A DNA stretch of 64,000 bases from Candidatus Saccharimonadales bacterium (GTDB taxonomy: Bacteria; Patescibacteriota; Saccharimonadia; QS-5-54-17): NCBI GenBank assembly GCA_040903985.1, contig JBBDUI010000002.1:326038-390037 (forward strand). The letters run 5' to 3'. The translations under genes and the position numbers were made by a program. The stretch's first letter is position 1, and the number at the start of each line of letters is the position of its first letter. The notes beneath the pieces were generated by a model. That model was not told the origin of the DNA and searched no databases. It was given only the letters and a program-made list of their open reading frames with translations. Of the stretch, positions 17,844 to 61,370 are shown in pieces.

Positions 17844-19574
17844 TTATGTAAGTGACTGATACTGTTTTAGTAGTTTCCGGCGCAAATCATCATCTCCGGC
17901 TGCCTCTGCAGCTGCTATTTCCTGACTGATGCGCTGTCTGTGTCGTTTAGTTTGGAGTTCTTGTAGGCGGTGGGTCAAACTAAAGGCCTCAACTTGTCGG
18001 TCAAGCAGTGCCCAGGACCCGTATTCTTCTTCGCCTCTTAATAGTAGTATTTTGACATAGTTTTCTAGCGGTAGCAACTCCTCAGGGATGGCGCTATCCG
18101 TTATATCCTCTCCATGCTCTCGTAAGTAAGCTAACAGCTGAATGGCGAAGTCGTCCAGTTGTTCCGGTTTAACCTCTTTAAGCGCGCCGCGCACATCCGG
18201 GTAGGTCACCGCTAGACTCAACAGCGCAGTACTGACCGTCGTCACTTCATCATGTGTCGGCGTGGCAGTGGATACCGCCTTAACTCGCTTCAAAGTGGCT
18301 GAGCCACCCGGGCTCACCTGAGACAACTTATCCTTCACCGTCGCTGGTGCTACCGCCGTCATATCAGCTAATAGCTTAATGTAATGCTCCTGCTCGACCG
18401 GATCACGTAAGCGACGCAAACTGTCTGCAATACTACTAGTGAAGTCTCGCTTGCCCTCGGCAGTAGCGAGATCATAATCAACCGCAAGAGCTTCGATGAG
18501 CCAGTCCATCACATACTGCTTATCACTCAGTAGCTGCTGCCACTGCTTGGGATTAGCCCGTATCACATCATCCGGGTCAGAGCCGGCCGGCAGAGTCACT
18601 ACCGATAAATTTATTCCGACCTCCTGGGCCAGCGGTACAGCTCGCATGCAGGCTTTAATCCCGGCACTATCGGCATCAAAGGCAAACGTCACTTTATCAC
18701 TCAGACGAGCTAACTGCTTTAGCTGTGGCAGTGTTACAGCCGTACCACTCACCGCCACCACTCGGGCAACTCCAGCCTGATGTGAACTAAGCACGTCTAA
18801 GTTTCCCTCCACTACTACGGATTCGTCCTGAGTGCGGATACTTTCTTTCGCCTGATACAGGCCAAAAACGAAACGGCTTTTGTCGAAGAGTTGAGTCTGG
18901 GGCGTGTTGAGATACTTTGGCATCCCTTCACCCAAGACACGGCCGGTAAAACCGATGATCCGGCCCTGAACGTCAAAAAAGGGTACCATTATTCGCCCCC
19001 AGAATAGGTCTTGTAGCTGTGAACCGCGCCGGCGAGCCAACCCCGCCTCCAGCAGCTCCTTATCGGTAAAGCCCTGTTTAGTTAAGAAGTGGGTCAAACG
19101 CGAACCTTCAGGCGGAGCCCATCCCAGTCGAAACTGTTTAATTGTCGCCTCACTCAAACTCCGACGTTCAGTAACGTACTCCCTAGCGACCGACGAGCGA
19201 CTAAGCTGGATGTGATAATACTGAGCCGCGGTCTCCAGGACTGAGTACAGACGGGCCTTATGGTCCTTAGCTGCTTGGGTGTTAGCCCCACTCCGCTCGG
19301 CGAGTTCGACACCGGCCTTGCTAGCTAACTTCTCTAGGGCTTCCCTGAAAGTTAGTCCGTCGACCTTTTCCACGAAAGTGAATATGTCGCCACCTTCACC
19401 ACAACCGAAACAGTGGTATATTCCCTTATCGGGGCTAACCATGAAGCTGGGGGTCTTTTCATTGTGAAACGGGCAAAGACCCTTAAAGTTACTACCGGCC
19501 GGCTTAAGCTGAACGTACTCGCCCACCACCTCATCAACCCCAAGTCGATCTTTGATCTCCGCCACTTCATCCAT
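17844..19574 (-). CDS. dnaG: DNA primase DnaG
   Basis: Zinc ribbon [30 protein letters not shown] and TOPRIM region [11 protein letters not shown]. Confidence 0.9.
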
Positions 19575-44206: not shown

Positions 44207-46738
44207 ATGGCCCTAGAGAAGAACTACGAACCACAGCAGCATGAAGCCGACATCTACCACCGTTGGGAGGAGTCCGGGGCCTTTCAGCCTCAGGGATCGG
44301 GAGAGCCTTACACCATCATCATGCCGCCGCCCAATGCCAACGGTTCACTCCATGCTGGGCACGCCAGTGGTTATACACTCGAGGACGTACTAATTCGCTA
44401 TCACCGCATGCAGGGCCGCCGTACTCTGTGGCTGCCCGGTACCGATCATGCCGGCATCGAGACGCAGTTCGTCTATGAGCGTGAACTAGCTAAGGCGGGC
44501 AAGGATCGTTTCGACCTCGGGCCAGAGAAGTTCTACGCCGCCGTCATGGAATTTACTCAAGCCTCCCAAGGCAACATGCTAGCTCAGATGCGGGCGATGG
44601 GCTGGAGCGCTGACTGGAGTAAGCTGAAGTTCACACTCGACGAGGATATCATCGGTACCGTCTACGATACTTTTATCCAAATGCACCGAGACGGACTGGT
44701 CTATCGGGGTAATCGTATCGTTAACTGGTGTCCGCGGTGCAGCGCCGCTTTCGCCGATATCGAGCTAGACCACGTCGACCAAGAGGGCAAACTCTACACC
44801 TTGGACTACGGCTCGATTCAGATCGCTACCACCCGTCCCGAAACCATCTTTGCCGATACTGCGGTGGCGGTCCACCCAGAGGATGAGCGCTACCGAGACC
44901 TAGTAGGGCAGACCGCTACCGTACCCCTAGTAGAGCGACCGGTAGCCATTATCGCCGATAAGTACGTCGACCCTGGTGCCGGTACTGGTGCGTTAAAGGT
45001 GACGCCCGGCCATGACCCAAACGATTATGAGATCGGCGTGCGCCACCAACTAGCTGAGATCAGCGTGATCGATCCGGAGGGTAAACTGATCAATGTACCG
45101 GAAGAGTTTGCCGGGTTAGATGTGGGGGAGGGTAGGTTCGCCGTAGTAGCTGCTCTGGAGAAAGCCGGCAAACTACTCAAACAACAATCCATCCAGCATG
45201 CAGTCGCCATTCACGACCGTTGTGGAACCACTATTGAGCCCTTGATCTCGGAGCAGTGGTTCTTACGTGTCGGCGAGCTGAACCGCACGACCATCAAAGC
45301 CATCGAAACCGACGCGATCACCATCGTACCGCAGCGTTTTAAGAAAATCGCTCTCAATTGGCTGGAGCAGGAACACGACTGGTGTATCTCCCGACAGATA
45401 TGGTGGGGAATACGCATTCCGGTCTTTTATAAGACCTCCAATGATCCGGATAAAGAGCCCTATCTGGTAGCTAAGACCGAAGCTGAGGCTACGGCCTACT
45501 ACGGTAGTAACAACTATCGGGCCGAAACCGACACCTTCGATACCTGGTTCTCTTCCGGTCAGTGGCCTTACGCTACCTTAATGGCTCACGACCTAGAGAA
45601 TGAGTTCTACCCCACTACAGTCATGGCGACTGCTCGCGAGATTCTCCATAAATGGGTCACCCGAATGATAATGTTTGGCCTCTATCGTACCGGTGAAGTA
45701 CCGTTTAAGAGTGTCTACCTCTGGGGATTAGTGACCGACGAAGCGGGGCAGAAGATGAGTAAGAGTAAAGGGAACGTACTCGACCCGCTCGAACTCAGTC
45801 AGCGTTACGGCACCGATGCGCTCCGCATGACCATGGTGGTGAAGAATACCCCCGGTAACGACAGTCCCTTAAGCGAAAAGCAGGTCGAGGCTTACCGCAA
45901 CTTCTGCAACAAACTCTGGAACGTTTCGCGCTACACCTTGACCCAGCTAGGTAATACAGCAGCTAAGCCCCCGGTAGCTGTGACACTGGCAGACCGCTGG
46001 ATATACAGTCGCTTGCAGGCGGTTACGGCTGAAATCGACCGATTAGTCGCAGCTTATCGCCTCGATGAGGCAGCTCAAGCCATTTATCACCTACTCTGGA
46101 GTGACTTTGCCGACTGGTACCTCGAAGCGCATAAGCTAGAACAAAACCACGCCATGTTGTCATACGGTCTCGAGACTATCCTTAAACTGGCTCACCCTAT
46201 AGTTCCATTCATCACCGAGGCTATCTGGGGCGAACTACCGGGCTCGCGTGACCCCTTGATCACTACCTCTTGGCCCCACCCTGAGCGCATCGATCAGAAG
46301 TCTATAAGTGAGTTTAATCAGCTACAGTCGCTCATCTCACAAATTCGCACAGTCATCGCTGAAACCGGAGAAACTGCTCCTAACCTCTACTATCGAGAGG
46401 CCGACCTACTGGACGATAACGCCGCCCTAGTGAGCAAACTGGCCGGGCTAGAAAGCTGCACCCGCGTAACCGATGGGCGAGGACTGCCGATACCGGGCAC
46501 TCCCATCGCCTGCTGGCTCGATGTAGATGAGCACACTATCGCTCGTTATCGCCAAAAACTAGAAGCTAGCCTAAAAGAGACGCAAGCGCAGGTTGCTGGC
46601 TTTGAGTCAAAGCTAGATAATAAGGCCTACAGGCGCAATGCACCCAAAGAGATAGTCAAGGAGACGCGAGTACGGCTAAAGGCTGCTCAGATGCGCTTAC
46701 AAACACTCTCAGAGCAACTTAAAGATCTGGATCAATAG
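44207..46738 (+). CDS. valS: Valine--tRNA ligase
   Basis: HIGH motif PPPNANGSLHAGHASGYTLEDVLIRY and KMSKS motif KMSKSKGN. Editing domain and C-terminal coiled coil present. Confidence 0.95.
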   Translation: MALEKNYEPQQHEADIYHRWEESGAFQPQGSGEPYTIIMPPPNANGSLHAGHASGYTLEDVLIRYHRMQGRRTLWLPGTDHAGIETQFVYERELAKAGKDRFDLGPEKFYAAVMEFTQASQGNMLAQMRAMGWSADWSKLKFTLDEDIIGTVYDTFIQMHRDGLVYRGNRIVNWCPRCSAAFADIELDHVDQEGKLYTLDYGSIQIATTRPETIFADTAVAVHPEDERYRDLVGQTATVPLVERPVAIIADKYVDPGAGTGALKVTPGHDPNDYEIGVRHQLAEISVIDPEGKLINVPEEFAGLDVGEGRFAVVAALEKAGKLLKQQSIQHAVAIHDRCGTTIEPLISEQWFLRVGELNRTTIKAIETDAITIVPQRFKKIALNWLEQEHDWCISRQIWWGIRIPVFYKTSNDPDKEPYLVAKTEAEATAYYGSNNYRAETDTFDTWFSSGQWPYATLMAHDLENEFYPTTVMATAREILHKWVTRMIMFGLYRTGEVPFKSVYLWGLVTDEAGQKMSKSKGNVLDPLELSQRYGTDALRMTMVVKNTPGNDSPLSEKQVEAYRNFCNKLWNVSRYTLTQLGNTAAKPPVAVTLADRWIYSRLQAVTAEIDRLVAAYRLDEAAQAIYHLLWSDFADWYLEAHKLEQNHAMLSYGLETILKLAHPIVPFITEAIWGELPGSRDPLITTSWPHPERIDQKSISEFNQLQSLISQIRTVIAETGETAPNLYYREADLLDDNAALVSKLAGLESCTRVTDGRGLPIPGTPIACWLDVDEHTIARYRQKLEASLKETQAQVAGFESKLDNKAYRRNAPKEIVKETRVRLKAAQMRLQTLSEQLKDLDQ

Positions 46739-49953: not shown

Positions 49954-50802
49954 CTACAGCTTGAGGCGTCTACTCAAACGGTCCACAGTATCCGGCTTGC
50001 GCTCCTCAAACGGAAGTCGATTCATCAGTATATCTAGTACTTGCTCTTCGGTCTTTGGTTCTAAGTTAACACTTAAGCTAGGCGAAAAACGCTTGGTTGG
50101 TATTAACTCTACAACTTGAGCGGTATCGCCCATCATACTGAAAGCCCGCAAGTCACTGAAAGAATAGTGTCTCTCACCAAGGGTAATGCCATCCTCGTAT
50201 AGCGCATATGACTCAAGGTGTCCATGGCGGCGATTCGACACGATCAGTGCCACTACACCTAAGATTACGGCAACCGCGCTAAGTACTGAGCTGAAGTTAA
50301 ACCCTCCCACTACAAACAAAGCTACCGTAACCAGAAGTCCTACGCCTCCGTAAACTAGCACCTGGCGCGAGCTACTACTGCCGCTGACCGGCTCGGCAGC
50401 CTGCCAAGAAAGCAAGGGGGCGTCGTCTGTCTGATCTACAGCCGGTGCAGTAGGATAATCTGCCGGATCGGTCGCCACCTCTTCCGGTAGTGGTTGAGGG
50501 GGTGTACCTGATGGCGATAAGGGCCGGTCTGAAACAGAGGGTACAGATGGTGTAGGAGTAAGGGGCTCGGCCACAGCGGCCGGTTCTGGAGCTACCGGTG
50601 GCTGCTGCTGCATCGCCATTTCTATCTGGGCGATCTCATCCGGCGTCTTGGGCGCGACTGGCTGAGACCCCGGAGCGGCCTCTTCTTTCACTACTGGCTC
50701 AGGTACTGGCGGCGGAGTCACTAAATCGGCCGGGCGATTTGCCGGTAGATCAGTATTGCTAGATTGAGGAGTAAATATTTGTCCGGGTCGCTGGTCTTTC
50801 AT
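49954..50802 (-). CDS. Hypothetical membrane protein with Pro-rich N-terminal region
   Basis: About 160 aa of Pro/Ala/Thr-rich low complexity, a central TM pair, and a C-terminal globular region. Confidence 0.45.
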   Translation of the reverse strand: MKDQRPGQIFTPQSSNTDLPANRPADLVTPPPVPEPVVKEEAAPGSQPVAPKTPDEIAQIEMAMQQQPPVAPEPAAVAEPLTPTPSVPSVSDRPLSPSGTPPQPLPEEVATDPADYPTAPAVDQTDDAPLLSWQAAEPVSGSSSSRQVLVYGGVGLLVTVALFVVGGFNFSSVLSAVAVILGVVALIVSNRRHGHLESYALYEDGITLGERHYSFSDLRAFSMMGDTAQVVELIPTKRFSPSLSVNLEPKTEEQVLDILMNRLPFEERKPDTVDRLSRRLKL

Positions 50803-50919
50803 AACTTGGATTATAGCAAACGCTTATGTTTTTAGCCCGCTCACTAATTAGCTTTGACTACTACTGCGACTCTAGTTTGCTTAAAATCATTGCTGTACAA
50901 TTAACTCTGACTGAGGTGA

Positions 50920-51009
50920 GGAGAGGTGGCCGAGCGGTTGAAGGCACTGGTCTTGAAAACCAGCAGGCCCTCACGGGTCTCGTGGGTTCGAATCCCACCC
51001 TCTCCGCCA
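50920..51009 (+). tRNA. tRNA-Ser (anticodon TGA), CCA encoded
   Basis: GGAGAGGUGGCCGAGCGGUUGAAGGCA-CUGGU-CUUGAAA-ACCAG... long variable arm ...GUGGGUUCGAAUCCCAC-CCUCUCC-G-CCA. Confidence 0.85.
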
Positions 51010-51086
51010 GTCGATAAGTGTTACACTTTAAAATACGGCCGAGCTGCAGCTATGCTCAATCGGAGAAGTACAGCTATCAAGCACGT

Positions 51087-51179
51087 GGAGAGGTACCCAA
51101 GAGGCTGAAGGGGCTGGTTTGCTAAACCGGTAGGGGGGAGCAATCCCCCGCGAGGGTTCGAATCCCTCCCTCTCCGCCA
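51087..51179 (+). tRNA. tRNA-Ser (anticodon GCT), CCA encoded
   Basis: GGAGAGGUACCCAAGAGGCUGAAGGGG-CUGGU-UUGCUAA-ACCGG... long variable arm ...GAGGGUUCGAAUCCCUC-CCUCUCC-G-CCA. Confidence 0.85.
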
Positions 51180-51188
51180 AAGAAAAAT

Positions 51189-51216
51189 CCTTGCATGAAT
51201 GCAGGGGTTTTTCTTT
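51189..51216 (+). terminator. Intrinsic terminator after tRNA-Ser(GCT)
   Basis: CCUUGCA-UGAA-UGCAGGG(G) followed by UUUUUCUUU. Confidence 0.65.
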
Positions 51217-51367
51217 GGTATAGGGAAGCAAATGAATAGTTTCAGTTGCGAGGGATTCGAGCAGGCGGAGCGATGTCTAAGTTTACCCTGCCAACGGCAG
51301 GGTAAGGCGAAGACCGCGAGCCATGCCGACGAGAAAATTCCGTCAGGAGTTTTACTCGTGGGGCGAT

Positions 51368-51383
51368 AACCCTCCCTCTCCGC
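51368..51383 (+). repeat. 16-nt direct copy of the tRNA-Ser(GCT) 3' end (CCCTCCCTCTCCGCCA)
   Basis: Exact match to 51164-51179, 189 bp downstream in the same orientation. Followed by GGAGAG, which can pair back on it. Confidence 0.5.
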
Positions 51384-51447
51384 CAGGAGAGTGTATCCGA
51401 GCTGTAAGCTCGGGTATAGTCTCCTGGACTGGGACTCGAACCTAAAT

Positions 51448-52119
51448 CTAATGTTTCGCTACCACCACCGCATCCACTCGTTTCGCGCCGCCCGCCCGCA
51501 AAAGTCGGGCGCATTCGTTTAGAGTGGCTCCAGTCGTCACCACGTCATCAACTAGCAGTACGCGTAGGCCTTTGACTCGGTCTGTACTCCGCAGCTTAAT
51601 GCTGCCCCTCACTTGGATTAAGCGCTGCTTGCGATCGGCACCGACCTGACGCAATCTACCCGCCTTATATCCCGTCTCGATGCAGGGTAGATCCATTAGA
51701 CGGGCTAATGCCCTAGCCAACTCTGCCGCCTGATTATAGCCCCGACGGCGAAAGCTGCGTGCAGTAGTTGGAGCCCAGGTAATCACATCGTAGCTCTGCT
51801 CCAGACTCACTAATTTAGTCGCTAGCAGTCGCGCCAAGGGAGTAGTCGCGTCTATACCGTTCTCGTACTTAAGGTAGCGAATCAGTTCCTTCACTAGACC
51901 GTCGTACTGGCTGGCCACCACCACCCGATAGAGCTGACTCTGCTTGCGGCAGCGGCTACAGGTACGAAAGCTCGGGCTGAGACGGTTACAGTTATAGCAG
52001 GTCTCTGCTCGGGGATTATCGAGATAGGGAAGGCAGTCGCGACATACCAGCTCACCGGTCGCACCGCAGCGACGGCAGGTGTGAGGCGCTATCAGTTTGA
52101 GGATTTGCTTGAAAAACAT
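51448..52119 (-). CDS. ComF family protein (competence protein ComFC-like, phosphoribosyltransferase domain)
   Basis: N-terminal Cys-rich zinc region CRRCG...CRDC...CYNC...CSRC. C-terminal PRTase motif VLLVDDVVTTGATLNE. Confidence 0.75.
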   Translation of the reverse strand: MFFKQILKLIAPHTCRRCGATGELVCRDCLPYLDNPRAETCYNCNRLSPSFRTCSRCRKQSQLYRVVVASQYDGLVKELIRYLKYENGIDATTPLARLLATKLVSLEQSYDVITWAPTTARSFRRRGYNQAAELARALARLMDLPCIETGYKAGRLRQVGADRKQRLIQVRGSIKLRSTDRVKGLRVLLVDDVVTTGATLNECARLLRAGGAKRVDAVVVAKH

Positions 52120-52208
52120 AGGATTTGCTTGCGTAAGTACACCTTATGTAGCTATAATAGGCGAAAATAGAAAACAAATGGAGTAACTAATACGCAAACG
52201 GAGGTGCT

Positions 52209-52685
52209 ATGGCTGCACGTGATAACGACCTAGATGATTTATTTGCCGAAGAACTCGAAGGTGATTTTTTAAATGATACCCCGGCTCAGACTAGCCCGGT
52301 AGCTGCTAACGACAGCGATAACAGTACGGAATCTGATGACTGGTTAGCCGAATCAGAAGTACCAGGTCAACTAGCGGTAGATGTCTACCAGACCAAGGAA
52401 AGCATCGTAGTGGTAGCTCCAGTCCCTGGCGTCAGTAAGGCCGACCTCGACCTTAGTATCGTCGAAAGCACCTTAACGGTCCGCGGCGCTCGCCGTGAGA
52501 GCGAGAAGATCCGTACTAGCGACTACTTCGTTCAGGAATGCTATTGGGGAGAGTTCTCTCGCTCTATAATTCTACCGGTCCAGGTCAAGGAAGAAGAGGC
52601 TGAAGCCGAGCTCAAAGACGGTATGCTGACAGTCACTATTCCTAAAGCTGAACAAGACCGCATCAAGAAGATCAGCATTAGCTAA
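52209..52685 (+). CDS. Small heat-shock protein (Hsp20/alpha-crystallin) with acidic N-terminal extension
   Basis: Alpha-crystallin domain AVDVYQTKESIVVVAPVPGVSKADLDLSIVESTLTVRG...KDGMLTVTIPK. Upstream candidate promoter TTGCGT-18-TATAAT and a tandem AGGATTTGCTTG direct repeat. Confidence 0.85.
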   Translation: MAARDNDLDDLFAEELEGDFLNDTPAQTSPVAANDSDNSTESDDWLAESEVPGQLAVDVYQTKESIVVVAPVPGVSKADLDLSIVESTLTVRGARRESEKIRTSDYFVQECYWGEFSRSIILPVQVKEEEAEAELKDGMLTVTIPKAEQDRIKKISIS

Positions 52686-52712
52686 ACTGCCCGGCGGTAG
52701 TCCGCACCCAAG

Positions 52713-52741
52713 AATAACCCCGCCATGATGGCGGGGTTATT
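52713..52741. terminator. Bidirectional hairpin terminator between hsp20 and pilin array
   Basis: AAUAACCCCGCCAU-G-AUGGCGGGGUUAUU, a 14 bp perfect stem between convergent transcription units. Confidence 0.6.
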
Positions 52742-52774
52742 CTCTTGCATCAACCTCTATGCACTCCGCTAGAT

Positions 52775-53122
52775 CTAAGTGGCGTTACCCTGGCTCAGCT
52801 GATCGATCACAAAGTCGACGGCAGCCCAGGATAGGAAGGCGACGATGATACCGATGATGGCGTAGAGAATAGTATTCTTAGCTCCTTCAACGGCACTGGA
52901 ATCACCTCCGGATACTACGTAGCGGAAACCACCGATGATTAGCATGATGACGGCGATGGCACCGAGTAGAGAAAGAAGGGTGTTAGCGATCGACTCAAAC
53001 ACCCCACCCGAACCGAATAAGCTATCGGCTACACCGCTGGGTTTAGTCGCATTAACCCCCCGCTCCAGGCTAGACTGAGCCACAGTATTAATAGCGCTTT
53101 GCAATATGCTGAGTTTATCCAT
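52775..53122 (-). CDS. VirB2/TrbC-like T4SS pilin-family paralog 1 (no signal peptide; possible silent/cassette copy)
   Basis: C-terminal 57 aa LGAIAVIMLIIGGFRYVVSGGDSSAVEGAKNTILYAIIGIIVAFLSWAAVDFVIDQL are identical to paralog 2. The N-terminus is hydrophilic. No RBS within 15 nt of the ATG. Confidence 0.6.
   Translation of the reverse strand: MDKLSILQSAINTVAQSSLERGVNATKPSGVADSLFGSGGVFESIANTLLSLLGAIAVIMLIIGGFRYVVSGGDSSAVEGAKNTILYAIIGIIVAFLSWAAVDFVIDQLSQGNAT
52798..52970 (-). repeat. 173-bp exact direct repeat shared by pilin paralogs 1 and 2 (second copy at 53274-53446)
   Basis: Identical nucleotide sequence at an offset of 476 bp. Encodes the conserved C-terminal double-TM hairpin. Confidence 0.8.
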
Positions 53123-53224
53123 AGTCTATGAGCCGAACTGTACGCCCGGCCGCTCCCTAGTTAATGATTAGCGAATTAACTATATTATACAATAAATTGT
53201 GCTTCATACAAAGAGTAACCGACC

Positions 53225-53254
53225 CTGGGTCGGGTCGGTTACTGACTAGCCTGG
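53225..53254 (-). terminator. Hairpin terminator after pilin paralog 2
   Basis: AGUAACCGACCC-UGGGUC-GGGUCGGUUACU, a 12 bp stem just downstream of the paralog 2 stop on the minus strand. Confidence 0.5.
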
Positions 53255-53266
53255 TAGACCAGATTC

Positions 53267-53650
53267 TTACTGAAGCTGATCGATCACAAAGTCGACGGCA
53301 GCCCAGGATAGGAAGGCGACGATGATACCGATGATGGCGTAGAGAATAGTATTCTTAGCTCCTTCAACGGCACTGGAATCACCTCCGGATACTACGTAGC
53401 GGAAACCACCGATGATTAGCATGATGACGGCGATGGCACCGAGTAGAAGGAGTAGGATGTTAGCGACTGTCTGGAAGACTCCACCGGCCTCAAACAAGGA
53501 ACTAGCTGTTCCTTCAGGCTTAACATCATTCAACTTATCGCCACCCAACTGGGCAAAGGCACTAGATGGTGTTAGTACGGCGGTAAAGAATATTGCCGCT
53601 TCTAGCAGCTTACGCTGAACGCCTTTCGAGATAGTTTGTAATTTTTTCAC
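53267..53650 (-). CDS. VirB2/TrbC-like T4SS pilin-family paralog 2 (likely major expressed copy)
   Basis: GTG start with GGAGG RBS 8 nt upstream. Own -10 TATAAT at ~53697-53702 on the minus strand. Signal peptide ending AFA-QL, variable region, then the conserved double-TM C-terminus. Confidence 0.7.
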   Translation of the reverse strand: MKKLQTISKGVQRKLLEAAIFFTAVLTPSSAFAQLGGDKLNDVKPEGTASSLFEAGGVFQTVANILLLLLGAIAVIMLIIGGFRYVVSGGDSSAVEGAKNTILYAIIGIIVAFLSWAAVDFVIDQLQ

Positions 53651-53733
53651 TTAAATTCTCCTCTTATTAGATATTCTGTTTCGATGACTTATGCTGAAAT
53701 TATAGCATAATTGCAGACATTCAAAAATCTTAA

Positions 53734-54207
53734 CTATCGGGGTCTAGAAGTTCCACCTGCACCACTATTCTCACTCTGCGACTGAGTCGTTGTTCCGCTA
53801 TTAGCTAGCTGATCGATCACAAAGTCGACGGCAGCCCAAGATAGGAAGGCGACGATAATGCCAACGATAGCGTAGAGAATGGTGTTGCGTGCGCCCTGGA
53901 CGGCATTCGAATCACCCCCAGAGACGACGAAGCGAAAGGCCCCAATTACTAGCATGATAACCGCTACCGCCCCCAGCACGAGAAGGAGTACATCGATAAC
54001 CGTCTTCACCGTATCGATCAGCTCTGGGCTATCGCCACCCATACTACACTCACTACCAGTCCAGCTACCACCGGCACCGATACAGGCCGACTCCTGCGCC
54101 GTCTGGGCATAAACCACATTCACGGTGCCTACGGTGCCGAACGCGAGCACACCCGCTACTACGATTAACATGCTAGATAGTATTTTTCTCATCCTGTCCC
54201 TTATCAT
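53734..54207 (-). CDS. VirB2/TrbC-like T4SS pilin-family paralog 3
   Basis: Signal peptide, Cys-containing variable region (ACIGAGGSWTGSECS), and conserved C-terminus LGAVAVIMLVIGAFRFVVSGGDSNAVQGARNTILYAIVGIIVAFLSWAAVDFVIDQL with a Gly/Ser/Thr-rich tail. Confidence 0.65.
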   Translation of the reverse strand: MIRDRMRKILSSMLIVVAGVLAFGTVGTVNVVYAQTAQESACIGAGGSWTGSECSMGGDSPELIDTVKTVIDVLLLVLGAVAVIMLVIGAFRFVVSGGDSNAVQGARNTILYAIVGIIVAFLSWAAVDFVIDQLANSGTTTQSQSENSGAGGTSRPR

Positions 54208-54566
54208 ACTGCACCCAGGGCAAACTGCACAATTATCTTAGCGGCAGCGGCCACCACTACCCCGACCAGAGAATAGATGATAGCCTCTCGGGCTCGCTTA
54301 GTCCGGTCCGGGCTACCCCCAGAGGTAGTGTAGATAAATCCGGCGACAATGATTACTACCACCGCTCCGATACCCATCACCCACAGTAGTAAGTCAGTAA
54401 TCGTATCGATGATACCAAGCACGGCATTTTGGTCAGCACTCTCACACTCCGCCCGATTGGGGTTATGCTGACAGACTATCTCCTGAGCTGACTGAGCTAA
54501 CGCCGGAGCTGCTCCGCTCAACATCATAACGAGAATTAGTCCGGTACTTATAATTGTCTGTTTCAT
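54204..54566 (-). CDS. VirB2/TrbC-like T4SS pilin-family paralog 4 (divergent)
   Basis: Signal peptide ALA-QS, Cys pair in the variable region, and a double-TM C-terminus: AVVVIIVAGFIYTTSGGSPDRTKRAREAIIYSLVGVVVAAAAKIIVQF. Confidence 0.6.
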   Translation of the reverse strand: MKQTIISTGLILVMMLSGAAPALAQSAQEIVCQHNPNRAECESADQNAVLGIIDTITDLLLWVMGIGAVVVIIVAGFIYTTSGGSPDRTKRAREAIIYSLVGVVVAAAAKIIVQFALGAV

Positions 54567-55063
54567 AGGTTATTTATCACAAAGTTTACGATAGTATAGG
54601 CCAGCACGCTAACCAATAGGCCGACTACGGCATAGAGGATAGTATTACGCGCGCTCTTCACTCCGTCCGGGCTACCGGCGGTAAAGACGAATTTGATCCC
54701 ACCGATGATAATGAAGACGGTAGCCAGCGCGCCAGTAATGACGAATACGATGTTAAGCACGCGGTTAAGAGCATTCTGATCCGCCTCAACATCCGGTATG
54801 CCTAGATCGTCTGCACTGCCCAGCGTACCAATATTAGCTGCTCCCGTACTGTCGACTCCGTTCTTATCTTCACAGAAGTCCACGCTATATCCCGGATATG
54901 GAGCTGGCTGTGGCACAGTCGTTCCATCATTACACTGCAGATCATCAGCATACACGACCGAAACACTCAGGTGCATCGTGAATGTAAGGATAACACTAGA
55001 GATCAATAGGAATCCGAAGACTCTAAGATCATGCGACGAGTAAATACCTTTTATAAAGTGCAT
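54563..55063 (-). CDS. VirB2/TrbC-like T4SS pilin-family paralog 5
   Basis: Signal peptide, Cys pair (CNDG...FCEDK), and conserved C-terminus IIIGGIKFVFTAGSPDGVKSARNTILYAVVGLLVSVLAYTIVNFVINNL. Confidence 0.6.
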   Translation of the reverse strand: MHFIKGIYSSHDLRVFGFLLISSVILTFTMHLSVSVVYADDLQCNDGTTVPQPAPYPGYSVDFCEDKNGVDSTGAANIGTLGSADDLGIPDVEADQNALNRVLNIVFVITGALATVFIIIGGIKFVFTAGSPDGVKSARNTILYAVVGLLVSVLAYTIVNFVINNL

Positions 55064-55417
55064 TTAGAATAGCCCCGCAACGAAGCCCACTAACGTACTG
55101 GCTAGAATCGCTATTACTAATCCTATCAGGGCATTAAGTAGTATCTTCTTTGCACTCTCGACAGCCGACGAGCTACCGCCGGAGGTGATGTAGCGGATAC
55201 CGCCGAAAATAATGAAGATTACAGCTAGTAGCCCAGCCAAGCGAATCGTTATATCCATGACGTTAGCTACTACTACCCAAAGATTATTAATATCCTGAAA
55301 GACTACCTGGCCTCCGTCACACTCTAGGCCGCGATACCAGTTAGGAAAGCCAAGGAAGTTGCTTGTACTCGGACACACTGCAGCAAACGTGTTTAGCAAA
55401 GGCTCAAAGTAGCTCAT
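55064..55417 (-). CDS. VirB2/TrbC-like T4SS pilin-family paralog 6
   Basis: Conserved C-terminus LLAVIFIIFGGIRYITSGGSSSAVESAKKILLNALIGLVIAILASTLVGFVAGLF. Weak N-terminal signal. Confidence 0.55.
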   Translation of the reverse strand: MSYFEPLLNTFAAVCPSTSNFLGFPNWYRGLECDGGQVVFQDINNLWVVVANVMDITIRLAGLLAVIFIIFGGIRYITSGGSSSAVESAKKILLNALIGLVIAILASTLVGFVAGLF

Positions 55418-55882
55418 CTATAGTATCCCTCCCGGAATTACGAAGTTAAGGATAGCCGCCATAAAAATAAACAGCAGCAGAGCCTCAAAAGCTTCCGTTA
55501 TCCGCTTTTTAGCGTGCGCCATACCTTCTGGGTTACCGGAAGAAGTGATGTACTGCACCCCACCAACCGTGATCATGAGGGCAATTACCAGGCCTACTCC
55601 ACCGGCTAAGAAACGAATGATCCAGCCCAAGTAGACAATAATCGGGTTAGTAGCTGCGTCGTCACCTCTAGGAACACAATTCTCCCCGTCCAGACCTACA
55701 CTGACATGTATCTCGTCATTTGCACAATGGTCGGCTATAACTGGAGCTACAGATAGTACCCCGATAAGGAGTATTACCCCAGCCAAAGAGGCGATACATA
55801 GTAATTTAAATTTGGCTCCGTTATTTATTTTTCTCATAGATTTAAGCAAATTATATAAGGTACTAAGTATTTCTACAACCAT
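55418..55882 (-). CDS. VirB2/TrbC-like T4SS pilin-family paralog 7 (first gene of array)
   Basis: Signal peptide, Cys pair (HCAND...ENCVP), and a double-TM C-terminus LVIALMITVGGVQYITSSGNPEGMAHAKKRITEAFEALLLFIFMAAILNFVIPGGIL. Confidence 0.55.
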   Translation of the reverse strand: MVVEILSTLYNLLKSMRKINNGAKFKLLCIASLAGVILLIGVLSVAPVIADHCANDEIHVSVGLDGENCVPRGDDAATNPIIVYLGWIIRFLAGGVGLVIALMITVGGVQYITSSGNPEGMAHAKKRITEAFEALLLFIFMAAILNFVIPGGIL

Positions 55883-55909
55883 ACAGCTGTTGCATGTTCT
55901 TTTCGCCTA

Positions 55910-55938
55910 TTGACATTTATAAGCACAGGTGTTATAGT
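55910..55938 (+). promoter_or_regulatory. Sigma-70 consensus-like promoter for the plus-strand T4SS operon
   Basis: TTGACA, 17 nt spacer, TATAGT. Lies in the divergent intergenic region between the pilin array and ORF 55978. Confidence 0.5.
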
Positions 55939-55977
55939 TAAAAGTATAGATTTAAGTTCGAAAGGCTACTTTAAATC

Positions 55978-57099
55978 ATGCCTAACCCTAGCCAAGAGCA
56001 ACCACAGTTATTTCCGCTCGAACATGACAACCCTGGTGTAATAGCGCAACTTGAACAACCTCCTGCCACCGCTAATTATGAAACTACGGATAGAATACGG
56101 CAGATAGACCCCCGCACTGAGCAGGACTCCGATTCCATAGGCAGCTCTAGCGGGCTGCTAGATAAGCTCCGCAGTAACAAAACCGCCGCCGTATCTGCAC
56201 TCGGCGGGGCCGTAGTAGCGACCATTCTCTTCAATATGAGCAAGGGCAACGATGAGCCGGGGATCCGCAACACCGTGGAAGCGTCGGGACCAGCTGATAG
56301 TCTAGACCCTGAAGCTACTAGTACGCAGCCGGAGGGTGGGAATACTAGTGTGTCACCACCGACAGAGAGTGGTGCAATTGATCCTGCTCCTGTCTTTAGA
56401 GACCGCTACGAAAGCCCTATAAGCGGTAACTCTGCTCCACGTGAAACCTGGATTCAGCTATGGCGCATTGAGACAGATCAGTTAGCCGGTCCTAGCGCTA
56501 AAGAAACCGGCACTCTTTCGTATGTCGATAGCACTACGGCCGATCTTAAGGAAAGAGTCGGACTAGAAAGTACCCCAGAAAACCCGCAAGCACGACCAGA
56601 TACTATAGAAATAGCTGAAAACGTAGCCTACCTCTATGAGTATGAGGGGCGCACTATAACGATTGATCGGCCCGCAATCTATGGAATGCACTTTGCTCCA
56701 AAAGATGACGGTAGTTTTGAGGCTCAGTGGAGCTGGAACGCCACTCATGAAGCGTACGATAACTACACTTTGCTTTTCCCTCTTGATGGAGACATAGAGC
56801 AATTTACCGTTACTGGTGAAGATAGCGATGTTCGTTGGTTTACTCAAGAAGGAGCCCGACTACTCGGCCTCTTCTATACTGACGGAAGCGAAGAAGCGAG
56901 GCTATCGCAGGTGGTTGCGAACACCGACGAGAGTTATTTGCGACGCGAATCGATATCTAATCAAACACCTCGGCTTGACCTAGGCGTAGCCGAAACTAGC
57001 GAACACGCTACAATTTGGGATGCTTGGGATTCACTTGAGACCAAATACCCGCAACTAGTACCAGTAGAACTTTCCGAAATCTCAAACTTCGCAAAATAA
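55978..57099 (+). CDS. T4SS-associated bitopic membrane protein (possibly VirB8/TcpC-like); hypothetical
   Basis: Cytoplasmic Pro/Gln-rich N-terminus, single TM (AAVSALGGAVVATILF), then ~270 aa extracytoplasmic domain. This topology and size are typical of VirB8/TcpC-like proteins. No sequence motif confirmed. Confidence 0.4.
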   Translation: MPNPSQEQPQLFPLEHDNPGVIAQLEQPPATANYETTDRIRQIDPRTEQDSDSIGSSSGLLDKLRSNKTAAVSALGGAVVATILFNMSKGNDEPGIRNTVEASGPADSLDPEATSTQPEGGNTSVSPPTESGAIDPAPVFRDRYESPISGNSAPRETWIQLWRIETDQLAGPSAKETGTLSYVDSTTADLKERVGLESTPENPQARPDTIEIAENVAYLYEYEGRTITIDRPAIYGMHFAPKDDGSFEAQWSWNATHEAYDNYTLLFPLDGDIEQFTVTGEDSDVRWFTQEGARLLGLFYTDGSEEARLSQVVANTDESYLRRESISNQTPRLDLGVAETSEHATIWDAWDSLETKYPQLVPVELSEISNFAK

Positions 57100-57122
57100 A
57101 CACTTGCATTGAGTGGTGTACA

Positions 57123-59543
57123 GTGAAGGGGCTTCATATTATACTACCTCAAATGAGCTCTACACTTTCCGAAAAGCTAAAAACAAATAAGTTGTTCCGA
57201 CTTTTTGTCGGCACTATATTTATACTAAGCACTGTCTTTTTGTTTCAGCTCGGTACTCCCGATACAGTCTACGCCGGCCGAGGGAATGAGTGCCATGACG
57301 CCTATGACCGCACACAACCCAGGGGAAACCCCAATAATACCGCTGACTACGTACTGGGCTACGTTCAATCTTATCCGGATAAAGCCCCTGAAGTAGTTTG
57401 CGGTACGGATGCACAAGGCGATGACATACGGGTAGCCCTCCTGCAGTGGGGGCCTGACGCTGGTAGCTGGCTTGGTGACAGTTCTCTGCCTGATGCTGCG
57501 GCACGTTACCTATTCTGGGCCTGGACTAGAGGAGAGGACCATGCCTCATTTATCAGATACAGCTATGCGACTAACCCGCCCGAAGTGGCTAATATTGTTT
57601 ACTTAAACCGCAACCTAACCGTTAGCATAGACGGCAGTAGCCAACGAGTGGATGATCCAGTCGGCCTCTTGCCACTTATTGAGCAGACCGAAGAGAATGG
57701 TAATGAGGGGGTGGGGACGAACCCGGACGATGTGACCAGTGAAACACCGGGACCAGAGTTAGAGGAAGACGAAGAGTGCGTCAATGAGGGTGGACTCTTC
57801 GGTGTCCTTATGTGTGATGCGTTAGTTTGGACCTTAAGTGCTCTAGAGTCTGTCCAGAGCTTAATTGTTGAAGTTCTCTTTGAAACTAAACCACTCATAG
57901 TCGGAGACACTAGCGATCCCCTATTTCAGATATGGGGAAACATTAGGGATGTGGCCAACATTCTTCTAGTAGTAGCTTTCATGTTCGTCATCTACTCCTT
58001 AGCCGTATCGGTAAATATTGATGCTTACTCAGTTAAAAGGATTGTTCCGCGACTACTAGTTGCCGCAGTATCGATTCAAGCTTCTTATTTTATATCAGCT
58101 ATCTTCATAGATATGACGTCTATTCTAGGGGCGGGAATTCAAGGATTTACAGACATAGCCATGGATGATGTAAGAATATCTCTCGGTAATGCCGAGGGAG
58201 CCGGCGGGTTCATCGCCCTCGGGTCTATTGCTGGACTAGCAGTAGCTGGAGGAATATTGCTCGCTCCATCTATAGGGTTAGTGGCTGTTATAATTCTATT
58301 AGTAGTGCTCGCAGCATTTGTAGTGGTAGCAGCTCGTGACCTACTCATTCTGATGTGCGTAGTCTTATCGCCCATCGCCTTCCTGGCAAACCTACTACCA
58401 AATACCGAGAAGTGGTTTAAATTCTGGTGGTCCAACTTTGCACGACTTCTGTTTATGTACCCTTTCATGATTCTCATGATTCAAATCGGAAACCTTGGTG
58501 CCTATATAGCGCTAAGTGCAAATCGTGAAGCTAGCTTTTTGGCTCCATTTATGGCACTCATCATGCAGGGTGTAGCTATCGGGTCGATCCTCCTCGCCTT
58601 CAAGGTTGGGGGGTCTCTTCTCTCGGTTACAACCAGTGGATTCCAGAAGTTCGCTAAGGGTGGAGGCGGTAGGAGCAAAGACGGTAAGGGGTTGCGCGGC
58701 AAAATTGGTCAACGTGCTCGAGAACGCCGAGGTGAGTACGCTACCGGCACAAGAGGTAACGCCTTTACCCGCGGCATTACTAGCCCAGCCACCGCATCGG
58801 TTATGCCTAGTCGTTTCCGCAATCAGTCAAGAGCTCAAGCCCTTAGTGGCTTTAACCTTCAACGAGGCGAGGCGGCCAAAGCACTGGAAGCTGAAGGTCA
58901 CGATGCCGATGCACTCAACACTTTTGCTAGGTATGGTGAATCGACCGATAGTTTTAAGCAAGGGTTAAAAGAGCTCCGCTCTAGTACTCGAATTAACCGG
59001 GAGACAGGCGCTGTTGAGTATAAAGACGCAGATGACATAGATAGAGATAACGCTAAAGCCGACAAGCTTGCCAATATGTCGCACCACGTAGGAAAGCGTG
59101 CATTCCAAGCAGCTGCACTTAAGCAGGTGGCCGACATGGGCTTTGCCGATAATGAAAGTTTCGAATCTGTCAGAGGCCTACTTCAAGACAATCCCACCCT
59201 AAGCCAACAAGTACTTACTCCGGCAGCTGTCGGTGCTAAAAAGGCCGGGCGCATTGATCAGTGGAAAGAGTACGGCCCTCTCGAGGCAAAGGATATCGTG
59301 GCGGGTATGGGCACGAAGGATATCGTCGAAATGAAACCGGTCAGCCTGAAAGACGCTGAACTGGCCAACCAGTTTAGAGATCAAGCAAGTGTGCCGAAAA
59401 GTGCTGCGCGCAAAGCATTATCAAGTGCACTGGGCTCAGCCAGTGGTATGAGCGCCAAACAACACGAAGAGTTTGAGCGTGTATTAGGACCCGACCTATA
59501 TGCCAAGTTGGTGGAAGAAGCTGAAGAAGGATGGAAGCGGTAG
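57123..59543 (+). CDS. VirB6/TrbL-like polytopic T4SS channel protein (PrgH/TcpH-like)
   Basis: 806 aa. Signal-anchor, ~220 aa extracytoplasmic domain, at least 6 TM helices in the 250-560 region, and a ~250 aa hydrophilic C-terminal domain. This is the Gram-positive-type VirB6 architecture. Located 3 genes upstream of VirB4. Confidence 0.6.
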   Translation: MKGLHIILPQMSSTLSEKLKTNKLFRLFVGTIFILSTVFLFQLGTPDTVYAGRGNECHDAYDRTQPRGNPNNTADYVLGYVQSYPDKAPEVVCGTDAQGDDIRVALLQWGPDAGSWLGDSSLPDAAARYLFWAWTRGEDHASFIRYSYATNPPEVANIVYLNRNLTVSIDGSSQRVDDPVGLLPLIEQTEENGNEGVGTNPDDVTSETPGPELEEDEECVNEGGLFGVLMCDALVWTLSALESVQSLIVEVLFETKPLIVGDTSDPLFQIWGNIRDVANILLVVAFMFVIYSLAVSVNIDAYSVKRIVPRLLVAAVSIQASYFISAIFIDMTSILGAGIQGFTDIAMDDVRISLGNAEGAGGFIALGSIAGLAVAGGILLAPSIGLVAVIILLVVLAAFVVVAARDLLILMCVVLSPIAFLANLLPNTEKWFKFWWSNFARLLFMYPFMILMIQIGNLGAYIALSANREASFLAPFMALIMQGVAIGSILLAFKVGGSLLSVTTSGFQKFAKGGGGRSKDGKGLRGKIGQRARERRGEYATGTRGNAFTRGITSPATASVMPSRFRNQSRAQALSGFNLQRGEAAKALEAEGHDADALNTFARYGESTDSFKQGLKELRSSTRINRETGAVEYKDADDIDRDNAKADKLANMSHHVGKRAFQAAALKQVADMGFADNESFESVRGLLQDNPTLSQQVLTPAAVGAKKAGRIDQWKEYGPLEAKDIVAGMGTKDIVEMKPVSLKDAELANQFRDQASVPKSAARKALSSALGSASGMSAKQHEEFERVLGPDLYAKLVEEAEEGWKR

Positions 59544-59654
59544 TGGAGGGGCTAGCGTCTATAACCCAGGAGATGATCCCGGCAACACTACTAACTGAGA
59601 CTGAGTTTGTTCAGATACCGCAGGTTGCTATACTAAAACCATAAGTGATTTATT

Positions 59655-60497
59655 ATGGCTGTATATAAAGTACCCCAAGATGTCGAAGCCGAGGATAAGC
59701 TCCTCGGCCCTCTAACTTTTAAGCAGTTTATCTTTCTGCTGATTGCCGGTGGGGCGGCTATGTTTGCCTGGCTGCTCTTCACTATTCAGCCGGTACTCGC
59801 CATCATCCCTCTGCCCATCATACTAATCTTCGGTGGTCTAGCTGTCTTTCGTCGTGAGGATCAACCGGTTGAACGTTACCTCCTATCGTTCTTCAACTAC
59901 ACACTGCGCCCCCGGGTGCGACTATGGAGCACGGAGGGATACTACGACCACCTAGTCATTACGGCCCCTAAGACCATGGCCACACCCGCTCTAAAGCAGG
60001 ATGTTAGTCAGGTTCATGGCCAGCTCGAGAAGCTAGCGCAAATTGTCGATACTCGTGGCTGGTCGGTTAAACAGCCCAACATTACACTGCCGAACCAAGT
60101 CGGTCAGGGCGACGACCGTCTCTTTCTCCCTCAGGTAGAGGCTCCACCGGAAGAAGTCCAAGAGAGCGACGATATTATGGATGACGCCAACCCTGAAGTA
60201 GTGCAGCTCGACTCCATCCTACAACAAGAAGCCGAACGACAACGCCAAGCTTTGCTGGAGCGAGTCAAACAGCAGGCTAGCGAACCTAGCCATTCCACAG
60301 CCACCACTGAGCCCCAAGCCGGCTCTGCAGAGCAAGAACGTGTAGCACCAGCGGTAGAGCCGGCTCCATCTAGCGGCAATACATCTGATATAATGAACCT
60401 ATCTGACCAGCTGACCGTCAGCCAGATTCAAGATCAGGTTAATCGTCAGGCTACCGACCAAAAACTAGAAGAGGGTGAGGAGATAAAACTACGCTAA
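59655..60497 (+). CDS. VirB3/PrgI-like small membrane protein with extended C-terminus; hypothetical
   Basis: Two closely spaced N-terminal TM helices (FIFLLIAGGAAMFAWLLF, LAIIPLPIILIFGGLAVF), located immediately upstream of the VirB4 ORFs. C-terminus is Gln/Glu-rich. Confidence 0.4.
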   Translation: MAVYKVPQDVEAEDKLLGPLTFKQFIFLLIAGGAAMFAWLLFTIQPVLAIIPLPIILIFGGLAVFRREDQPVERYLLSFFNYTLRPRVRLWSTEGYYDHLVITAPKTMATPALKQDVSQVHGQLEKLAQIVDTRGWSVKQPNITLPNQVGQGDDRLFLPQVEAPPEEVQESDDIMDDANPEVVQLDSILQQEAERQRQALLERVKQQASEPSHSTATTEPQAGSAEQERVAPAVEPAPSSGNTSDIMNLSDQLTVSQIQDQVNRQATDQKLEEGEEIKLR

Positions 60498-61369
60498 TGC
60501 CACCGAACAACACGCCCAACCAGCCCCAATCACCGGCTACACCCGAACCGGCTCCAGCTACCCCTCAGACTCAGATCAACCCCAGCGCTGCACCCTTAGG
60601 TCCGCCGCCACGCTCGATGCCTAAAACCGCTAAGCCAGCGGTTAAAAAGAAGTCTGACAATACCGCTCAGAAGAGTCTACTTATCTCTGAGATCCGGGAC
60701 GGCATGGTAGTGATGAAGGACGGCTCGATGCGAGCGGTCGTGATGTGCCAATCAATCAACTTCGACCTAATGAGCCCACAGGAAAGGGAAGGGATAGAGT
60801 ACTCCTACCAGGGCTTCTTAAACTCACTCTACTTCCCAGTCCAGATACTAATCCGAAGCCAGCATATTAACCTCGACGGCTACATGGAGCGATTAGAAGC
60901 AATCAGACGAGACCAGGACAACATTCTGCTCGGACTGCTGATGGAAGATTACATCACCTACGTACGTTATCTGGTAGAAGCGGCCAACATTATGGACAAG
61001 CAGTTCTACATCGTGGTGCCTTACTACCCTAATATGCTGAACAAAGAGGGGATAGCCAGCGGCGCCCAGAAGTTCTCCGAACTCTTCAAACCGAAACAAG
61101 AAGGAGTAATCACTATTAACGAGACCGACTTCACCAAGGCTAAGCAGGAGTTGACGCAGCAGGTCCGGGTGGTAGCTAACGGCCTAAACCAACTAGGGGT
61201 TAAATCCATACCCCTAAACACCCAGGAGTTAATCGAGCTTTACTATAACGTCTACAATCCAGTCACTGCTAAACAGCAGCCGCTAACTGACGTCGGTGAC
61301 CTAGATGCATCGATCATCGGTAAGGGTGACGGCCAAGCAAAACAGGTATTCCCAGGGGGCGGGGCATAG
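60497..61369 (+). CDS. VirB4/TraC N-terminal-domain protein (Pro-rich leader plus CagE_TrbE_VirB-like domain); possibly the 5' part of a split virB4
   Basis: LLISEIRDGMVVMKDGSMRAVVMCQSINFDLMSPQEREGIEYSYQGFLNSL matches the conserved VirB4 N-terminal block (kdGs...G.dfe...see). The ORF ends with TAG 1 nt before the ATG of the ATPase ORF, at a G-run. Confidence 0.55.
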   Translation: MPPNNTPNQPQSPATPEPAPATPQTQINPSAAPLGPPPRSMPKTAKPAVKKKSDNTAQKSLLISEIRDGMVVMKDGSMRAVVMCQSINFDLMSPQEREGIEYSYQGFLNSLYFPVQILIRSQHINLDGYMERLEAIRRDQDNILLGLLMEDYITYVRYLVEAANIMDKQFYIVVPYYPNMLNKEGIASGAQKFSELFKPKQEGVITINETDFTKAKQELTQQVRVVANGLNQLGVKSIPLNTQELIELYYNVYNPVTAKQQPLTDVGDLDASIIGKGDGQAKQVFPGGGA

Positions 61370-61370
61370 T

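Follow-up and report, generated by a model that had tools for sequence, protein, structure and literature searches.

A 174-bp identical block in two old, adjacent type IV secretion system pilin genes of a Candidatus Saccharimonadales bacterium: a probable gene conversion tract

Tandem VirB2 pilin genes have been described on a broad scale in Patescibacteria, where the available part of a survey text counts 441 arrays of 2-11 genes in 383 assemblies, mostly in Microgenomatia and Saccharimonadia (PMC12102498). The pilin series that lies in Candidatus Southlakia epibionticum ML1's type IV secretion system (T4SS) cluster is essential, and T4SS pilin arrays are described as essential for epibiotic growth in the sole Saccharibacterium tested genetically, as far as the accessible text of that study goes (PMC10633639). 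In Bartonella, the Trw T4SS bears tandem trwL (virB2) genes for variant surface-exposed pilins, has no coupling protein, and acts in host interaction (PMC2610397). Here, we describe a 64,000-nucleotide stretch of DNA from a Candidatus Saccharimonadales bacterium (assembly GCA_040903985.1, contig JBBDUI010000002.1, positions 326,038 to 390,037; referred to as the window), which encodes an array of seven pilins. The last two genes of this array—P2 and, at the very end, P1—share a block of 174 identical nucleotides.

As described in the available survey text, the Patescibacteria arrays resemble the array of the window in that tandem PF18895/PF04956 pilins lie beside a relaxase-less monoderm-type (MPF-FATA-like) T4SS with VirB4, VirB6, and PrgI/VirB3. 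They differ in their internal similarity: the same text reports a within-array identity of 25% on average and of 54% at maximum (PMC12102498), whereas the overall identity of P1 and P2 amounts to 73%. In the accessible portions of the two Patescibacteria articles (PMC12102498, PMC10633639), tracts converted between members of an array go unmentioned. We consider it probable that the 174-bp identity marks a recent, non-reciprocal conversion tract between old adjacent pilin genes—a case of ordinary concerted evolution and not of a pilE/pilS-type system—and that P1 is still a gene.

An identical core in two diverged pilin genes

The block is an exact direct repeat of 174 nucleotides (nt) at an offset of 477 nt (Table 1) and is the sole exact direct repeat of at least 30 nt within the window. 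An earlier note on this DNA had placed a 173-bp repeat at 52798-52970 and 53274-53446 with an offset of 476; the repeat as such is real, its coordinates were one base out of register, and at an offset of 477 all 173 of its 173 positions match. In a repeat search, the block grows inexactly to a length of 225 nt (92% identity), and a third copy of this extended repeat shows up in the neighboring gene P3 (53807-54031, 67% identity). The block encodes a two-helix membrane hairpin, LLGAIAVIMLIIGGFRYVVSGGDSSAVEGAKNTILYAIIGIIVAFLSWAAVDFVIDQL, and its identity stops 4 nt short of the P2 stop codon, that is, one codon before it. Over these 58 residues (174 nt), P1 and P2 are 100% identical.

The codon alignment of P1 and P2 contains no difference within the block (0/171 nt), compared with 76 differences in the 153 aligned nt on its 5' side (Fisher p = 3e-31). 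Of the 51 nt in the 17 codons directly preceding the block, 18 are already different, which makes the boundary of the tract a sharp one. For comparison with other genomes, a locus survey was used that comprises 80 species-level Saccharibacteria loci, other fetched loci, and the window, which makes 83 loci (the window, L003, and L005-L085) with 400 pilin open reading frames (ORFs) called by profile. Where two cores agree in 95% or more of their amino acids, pairs taken between genomes use the same codon at 60% of the identical residues, and their longest exact run averages 25 nt; for pairs within genomes, these values amount to 88% and 116 nt. The longest exact core run between genomes measures 78 nt and stems from a near-identical species pair (L034/L035). 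Against orthologues, the core of P1 or P2 gives Nei-Gojobori proportions of synonymous differences (pS) of 0.52-0.87 and of nonsynonymous differences (pN) of 0.06-0.13, while pS between P1 and P2 is 0. Since the core is thus saturated at synonymous sites between species, protein constraint cannot explain the identity of the block.

The N-terminal halves tell of a separate past. That of P2 has its best matches in the P2-like (Z-type) genes of L003 (E = 6e-15) and L006 (E = 4e-13), and that of P1 in pilins of other genomes (L073, L037, L005, and others), with P2 only as the tenth match. Judged by these matches, P1 and P2 are old paralogs, older than the tract. An identity that is limited to the core of two old paralogs, therefore, speaks for recent gene conversion. 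On this point, the earlier note is borne out—by the sharp boundary, by zero synonymous differences next to saturated orthologous cores, and by recurrence of the pattern in other species.

In the survey, exact blocks of at least 40 nt between two pilin genes are present in 14 of the 83 loci, and they always lie over the hairpin core, with the N-terminal segments differing. L003 bears an exact block of 162 nt between a gene without signal peptide and the adjacent P2-like gene, which matches the pairing found in the window. Further exact blocks are found between two P2-like genes in L006 (240 nt), between two pilin genes 1.4 kb apart in L078 (192 nt), and between pilin genes of L005 (59 nt).

The window itself holds another such segment, in P3. 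The 3' end of this gene (53807-53856, minus strand) equals P1 52797-52846 and P2 53274-53323 at 49 of 50 nt, with 32 nt exact, and the rest of the P3 core is ~70% identical to P1/P2; by this match, the last 50 nt of P3 are a third, shorter homogenized segment that links three paralogs. The description of the other five paralogs as diverged in the earlier note holds for the most part (P3-P7 share 50, 27, 31, 35, and 23% identity with P1), but not for this end of P3.

Two further observations concern the arrangement of the genes. Pilin genes of opposite orientation carry inverted exact blocks in L016 (1712/3526, 75 nt) and L052 (6083/7952, 40 nt), which in principle could mediate inversion of the intervening segment. 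Also, the order of pilin classes varies: it runs X, signal peptide-less, P2-like in L003, L005, and L006—with the P2-like gene duplicated in L006—and P2-like, then P1-like in the window and in the independent contig L086, where the X class is absent. Such differences between lineages are, at the level of sequence, consistent with rearrangement via recombination between similar cores.

The contig L086 also gives a hint on direction. The block is 80% identical to the P2 orthologue of L086 (139/174) and 73% identical to its P1 orthologue (127/174), so that the transfer probably went from P2 to P1.

That the identical block merely reflects an assembly error, be it a mis-join or a repeat that was collapsed or duplicated, appears very improbable to us. 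The flanks are collinear with L086 (P3-like, P2-like, terminator/promoter, P1-like, HSP20, and ComF-like), neither gene is truncated or out of frame, and analogous blocks are present in independently assembled genomes from other studies. In addition, P1 and P2 recur as the same proteins in two NCBI assemblies, on contigs of 739,010 and 747,367 bp; GCA_040876815.1, with contig JBBDOY010000002.1, is one of these assemblies. The concern itself is understandable for a metagenome-assembled genome (MAG), as a 174-nt exact repeat is longer than common de Bruijn k-mer sizes, and bubble-merging of near-identical copies by the assembler could slightly overstate the perfect identity; in the worst case, however, ~98% identity would have been turned into 100%. 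A diversity-generating retroelement, in which the two copies would be a template repeat/variable repeat pair, was considered and rejected: there are zero mismatches, both copies code for membrane helices, and no reverse-transcriptase family is among the Pfam matches of genes within ~10 kb on either side.

P1 between cassette, relic, and gene

P2 is equipped with expression signals of its own, much as the earlier note had described them: a −10 element (TGCTATAAT), a signal peptide—in sequence terms, ending in AFA before Q—and a downstream 12-bp terminator-like hairpin. Its ribosome-binding site stands as an assignment, although not in its details, being a Shine-Dalgarno (SD)-like GAGGAG at 7 nt from the GTG start and not GGAGG at 8 nt. 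The hairpin, as far as can be predicted, separates the transcription units of P2 and P1.

P1 was said to have neither a signal peptide nor a nearby ribosome-binding site, and both statements are correct. Signal peptides were judged here by the maximum 11-residue Kyte-Doolittle mean. By this measure, the N terminus of P1 is weakly hydrophobic, with a maximum of 1.21 in comparison to 2.1-2.96 for P2-P5; residues 1-15, MDKLSILQSAINTVA, contain no canonical signal peptide, and no SD motif lies within 22 nt of the ATG. On the other hand, the claim that P1 is promoter-less is not confirmed. A perfect TATAAT on the minus strand is located just downstream of the P2 terminator, and this −10 region aligns with TGgTATAGT...TTAATTCG, which in L086 lies upstream of the positional orthologue, and with the TATAAT of a further contig, L088. 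This call relies on sequence and positional conservation, and promoter activity is predicted only.

P1 is, moreover, a complete ATG-to-stop ORF with a whole mature pilin, which aligns from AQSS onward with homologues that bear signal peptides. Its mature N-terminal peptide begins QSSLERGVNATK, the stretch GVNATKPSGVADSLFGSGGVFESIANTLLSLLGAIAV is unique to P1, and the C terminus reads DQLSQGNAT. Residues 16-51 form the variable segment and lie outside the converted tract; for these codons, comparison with five orthologues gives a pN of 0.33-0.44 and a pS of 0.70-0.84 (pN/pS ~0.4-0.55), and the variable region of P2 shows a pN in the same range (0.33-0.40). Because pN stays well below pS, as it does in P2, the part of P1 that is out of reach of conversion still looks selected.

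Pilins without signal peptide are common in arrays of this kind, with 86 of 399 ORFs (22%) spread over 62 of the 83 loci, P6 of the window and its counterparts in L005 and L009 included. Intact relatives of P1 that lack a signal peptide and bear SD motifs are present in L003, L005, and L006, and several more are found among metagenome proteins. Many of the signal peptide-less pilins measure ~95-110 aa and open with a short M..L(L/I)..(F/L)A motif (e.g., L058 3859-4865, L076 4798-5786, and window 55064-55417). Neither is a missing SD motif special to P1, as only 17 of 51 ORFs in the window carry one at −22 to −4 and 34 do not. Many ORFs of the window bear a TATAAT- or TATACT-like box 6-12 nt before their start, with examples among 273-2396(-), 17844-19574(-), 44207-46738(+), 49954-50802(-), 55418-55837(-), and 57153-59543(+). 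This suggests that leaderless messenger RNAs or ones with very short leaders are widespread in this genome.

The earlier note had compared the pair to pilE/pilS-type antigenic-variation loci. Spelled out as a system of programmed antigenic or host-range variation, this would make P1 a silent donor, P2 the expression locus, and the block a recombination anchor for the swapping of variable segments. We find this hardly credible. The −10 box of P1 is conserved, its start codon and entire mature coding region are in place, and it is a single candidate cassette without a bank. The part that was homogenized is the conserved core, whereas the variable parts stay distinct, group with pilins of other genomes, and look unshuffled. 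No guanine quadruplex (G4) motif (G3+N1-7 x4) is found on either strand of 52000-56200, and P1 and P2 are identical as proteins in two assemblies. In addition, the inferred direction from P2 to P1 is the reverse of a pilS-to-pilE transfer, and the family is that of VirB2-like T4SS pilins and not of type IV pilus pilins. What the cassette idea can call upon is the arrangement itself, in which a copy without signal peptide and SD motif adjoins a fully equipped copy with a long identical 3' block, and the repetition of this pairing around the 162-nt block of L003. It may also draw on a speculation in the available survey text that pilin arrays help Patescibacteria to adapt to different hosts (PMC12102498). 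A search of 5.8 billion proteins gave no match above 73% identity (best non-self protein match), and a contig search with the VirB6-like protein found no close strain.

Several points weigh against our own reading, to which the possible overstatement of identity by the assembler has to be added. The nearest positional orthologues of P1—P0002 of L086 (133 aa) and P0004 of L088 (128 aa), each the last pilin before HSP20—carry normal signal peptides. An in-frame TAG stands two codons before the ATG of P1, and the sole SD-like motif, GGGAG, is situated 31 nt upstream of the ATG; a structured 5' untranslated region (UTR) that would bring GGGAG near the AUG was considered and rejected, the fold being unremarkable (z = -0.84). 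For the direction of transfer, the evidence comes from a single relative, L086, with 139 versus 127 matching positions out of 174 nt. Finally, the PDB yielded no specific pilin match: a profile search against its sequences gave no match at E <= 1 and Foldseek against the PDB gave none at E <= 0.001, with only generic helical hairpins.

Some of these points would also fit the view of P1 as an incipient pseudogene, a relic that was disabled recently and is not exported, with a 3' half that stays pristine through overwriting by the functional P2. The conversion would then be genuine but without functional significance for P1. The signal peptides of the L086 and L088 orthologues, the low score of the first 15 residues (1.21 versus 2.1-2.96 for P2-P5), the upstream TAG together with the lack of an SD motif within 22 nt, and the greater closeness of the block to the P2 orthologue all agree with this, and we regard it as unlikely but worth keeping in mind. 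It is weakened by a complete ORF whose 36-codon variable region, outside the tract, is free of frameshifts and stops and shows a pN of 0.33-0.44 versus saturated pS, as in P2, although cross-species pN/pS is blind to a very recent loss of function. Also, the −10 box is kept, intact relatives that bear SD motifs but no signal peptide are known from at least three other species (L003, L005, and L006) and among several metagenome proteins, signal peptide-less pilins amount to 22% of array members, and SD-less genes are the majority in the window. With its own transcription unit, its complete ORF, and its membership in a class that exists with and without signal peptide, P1 is most likely still a gene, and it is presumably expressed and inserted into the membrane.

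Three further observations concern the 5' part of P1. The idea that its 5' UTR represents the decayed first 13 codons of an ancestor with signal peptide found no support, since the alignment to L086 reaches only z = 0.6 and 143 of 500 shuffles are as good. At a run of six G (53056-53061, minus strand), slippage or an error in sequencing would have consequences, as one added G would fuse a hydrophobic upstream frame, KALLILWLSLAW, to P1. A frameshift at this run was rejected: the annotated frame already matches homologues upstream of it (AQSSLERGVNA versus AQSSIQNGVNA in L073), and the alternative frame has no start codon. By its HSP20 protein, the window is about equally distant from both groups of relatives, with 77-78% identity to the signal peptide-bearing group (L086/L088) and 71-74% to the signal peptide-less group (L003/L006). 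The lack of a signal peptide in P1 may accordingly be either a stable variant of some age or a loss of recent date.

The pilin array and its surroundings

All seven ORFs of the array match PF18895 (T4SS_pilin) with 27.1-48.6 bits against a gathering cut-off of 26.6, P1 scoring 42.8 and P2 42.2. P2 reaches 27.1 bits on PF04956 (TrbC/VirB2), just below the cut-off of 27.9, and the NCBIfam Mbov_0395 pilin-like family is matched below its cut-off. By these profile matches, P1-P7 are VirB2-like T4SS pilins. The AlphaFold2 model of P1 shows helices at 41-70 and 75-113 with a predicted local distance difference test score of 84-93 for residues 41-110, and the hairpin is laid out as helix LLSLLGAIAVIMLIIGGF, polar loop RYVVSGGDSSAVEGAKN, and helix TILYAIIGIIVAFLSWAAVDFVI. 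P3-P7 are complete genes that abut or overlap one another and have positional counterparts in L005. P6 belongs to a conserved class without signal peptide that bears FP.WY(R/K)GL.C before the hairpin and occupies the second array position, with counterparts in L005 (1421-1792), L009 (172-537), and L042 (4406-4780).

Divergent from the array lies a T4SS gene cluster that its family matches mark as monoderm-type (Table 1). The divergent intergenic region contains a near-consensus promoter that faces this cluster (55910-55938, plus strand), consisting of TTGACA, a spacer of 17 nt, and TATAGT with an upstream TG (11/12 matches). On the other side of the array, the inverted repeat between the 3' ends of HSP20 and P1 is probably a bidirectional terminator.

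Table 1 Features of the pilin array and its neighborhood in the window
Feature	Position	Strand	Remarks
HSP20 gene	52209-52685	+	Convergent with P1
GC-rich inverted repeat AATAACCCCGCCA...TGGCGGGGTTATT	52713-52742	.	Between HSP20 and P1 3' ends, read from sequence
Pilin array	52775-55882	-	Seven consecutive pilin ORFs
P1 (WD467_01995)	52775-53122	-	115 aa, PF18895 T4SS_pilin, last gene of array
Block copy 1, in P1	52797-52970	-	Coding-sequence nt 153-326, codons 52-108 fully covered
P1 −10 TATAAT	53184-53189	-	Followed by TTAATTCG at 53179-53172
Terminator-like hairpin after P2	53214-53243	-	12 bp, 7 GC pairs
P2 (WD467_02000)	53267-53650	-	127 aa, GTG start, PF18895 T4SS_pilin
Block copy 2, in P2	53274-53447	-	Coding-sequence nt 204-377
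SD-like GAGGAG of P2	53663-53658	-	7 nt before GTG
Extended −10 TGCTATAAT of P2	53699-53707	-	
P3	53734-54192	-	T4SS_pilin paralog
P4	54204-54566	-	T4SS_pilin paralog
P5	54563-54976	-	T4SS_pilin paralog
P6	55064-55417	-	T4SS_pilin paralog
P7	55418-55837	-	T4SS_pilin paralog
T4SS cluster	55978-63266	+	Divergent from array; Pfam/NCBIfam matches
373-aa protein	First gene of T4SS cluster	+	Function unassigned
TrbL_3/VirB6-like	57153-59543	+	
PrgI/VirB3-like	59655-60497	+	
TraC-like/TrsD-like	60497-61369	+	
VirB4-like ATPase, CD1110 family	61371-63266	+	NF045971, 372.7 bits versus cut-off 325

With regard to RNA genes, only tRNAs reach the gathering score of Rfam in the window, and a permissive search of 50800-53800 gave only sub-threshold chance matches. 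A fragment at 51339-51385 resembles the 3' part of the neighboring tRNA-Ser genes, ends in CCCTCCCTCTCCGCCA, and is located ~160 nt downstream of tRNA-Ser(gct). It is called neither by default ARAGORN nor by Rfam, and a lowered threshold yields a dubious tRNA-Arg(ccg) only; a remnant of a tRNA gene or the scar of an old integration would be possible explanations.

In the locus survey, pilin arrays of the Saccharibacteria type were also encountered on MAG contigs labelled Magnetospirillaceae, Nanoarchaeia, Acidobacteriota, Verrucomicrobiia, and Dongiaceae (L010, L018, L032, L066, and L073). These labels probably reflect binning contamination in the public MAGs concerned.

Consequences of a shared core and comparison with known systems

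The course of events that we propose starts from P1 and P2 as anciently diverged VirB2-like pilins at the end of the seven-gene array. A recent non-reciprocal exchange—presumably an intrachromosomal conversion of the RecA type, seeded in the conserved core—then replaced the part that encodes the two-helix membrane hairpin, the presumed conserved packing core of the pilin, and each gene kept its own promoter, leader, variable segment of ~35 residues, and last few codons. The outcome is a pair of pilins that share their core and differ in ends that are presumably exposed. In the structures of the F- and T-pilus, the packing core of the filament consists of the two helices, and the termini lie exposed. 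If this layout applies, P1 and P2 would be interchangeable in assembly and different on the surface, with the variable segment being the surface-exposed part by analogy.

The locus shows that, in several species, conversion holds the cores of neighboring paralogs identical and leaves their N-terminal segments distinct, a pattern that fits several pilin types with one common assembly interface and with differences confined to ends that are probably exposed. As direct repeats, the two 174-bp copies also expose the pair to a 477-bp deletion or a duplication by unequal crossing-over, and crossing-over of this kind fits the variable copy number and order of the P1- and P2-like classes between lineages.

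One could go further and take recombination between the homogenized cores for a selected property of Saccharibacterial pilin arrays instead of passive concerted evolution, with identical blocks as portable crossover sites through which variable N-terminal (surface) segments, promoters, and leaders would be re-assorted, duplicated, or deleted at appreciable frequency. Possible traces of such a process are the differing order of P1- and P2-like genes, the P2-like duplication in L006, and the inverted pairs with blocks of 40-75 nt (L016 and L052). If it were true, an epibiont population would have a few alternative pilus surfaces at its disposal with which to meet different host strains. We think of it as a long shot, though, and prefer the plain reading of a recent conversion between neighbors.

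Under the latter, the practical value is modest: the repeat can confound assembly and orthology calls, and a pilin without signal peptide or SD motif need not be silent in these genomes. Also, the published ceiling of 54% on within-array identity is no hard limit (PMC12102498).

A pilE/pilS system is the comparison that the arrangement of the two genes first brings to mind. The pilS copies of Neisseria lack a promoter and the 5' coding region and are arranged in banks; they act as donors of variable segments, for which a G4 upstream of pilE is required. The likeness lies in a pilin gene that adjoins a copy without leader and nearby ribosome-binding site, with an identical block that could support a RecA-dependent non-reciprocal transfer. 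The differences, however, are substantial: the Neisseria proteins belong to the type IV pilus pilin family, P1 has a promoter box, a start codon, and a full mature region, and the window offers one copy, no G4, and a shared part that is conserved rather than variable.

For concerted evolution among tandem T4SS pilins, the Trw system of Bartonella offers, by analogy, the nearest precedent. Its tandemly amplified trwL genes are reported to be under diversifying selection as well, and the title of the article of Nystedt et al. (2008, as cited in PMC2610397) names concerted evolution. Within the available description of Trw, both systems consist of tandem VirB2-family paralogs that are homogenized by recombination. 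The organism there is a Gram-negative alphaproteobacterial pathogen, and the system derives from plasmid R388. As far as that description reaches, the trwL genes are young, lineage-specific duplicates, whereas P1 and P2 represent old classes that are spread across species-level genomes and exchange a tract confined to the membrane core. The locus is of modest interest, a further instance of a process already known, in an array of a kind likewise known.

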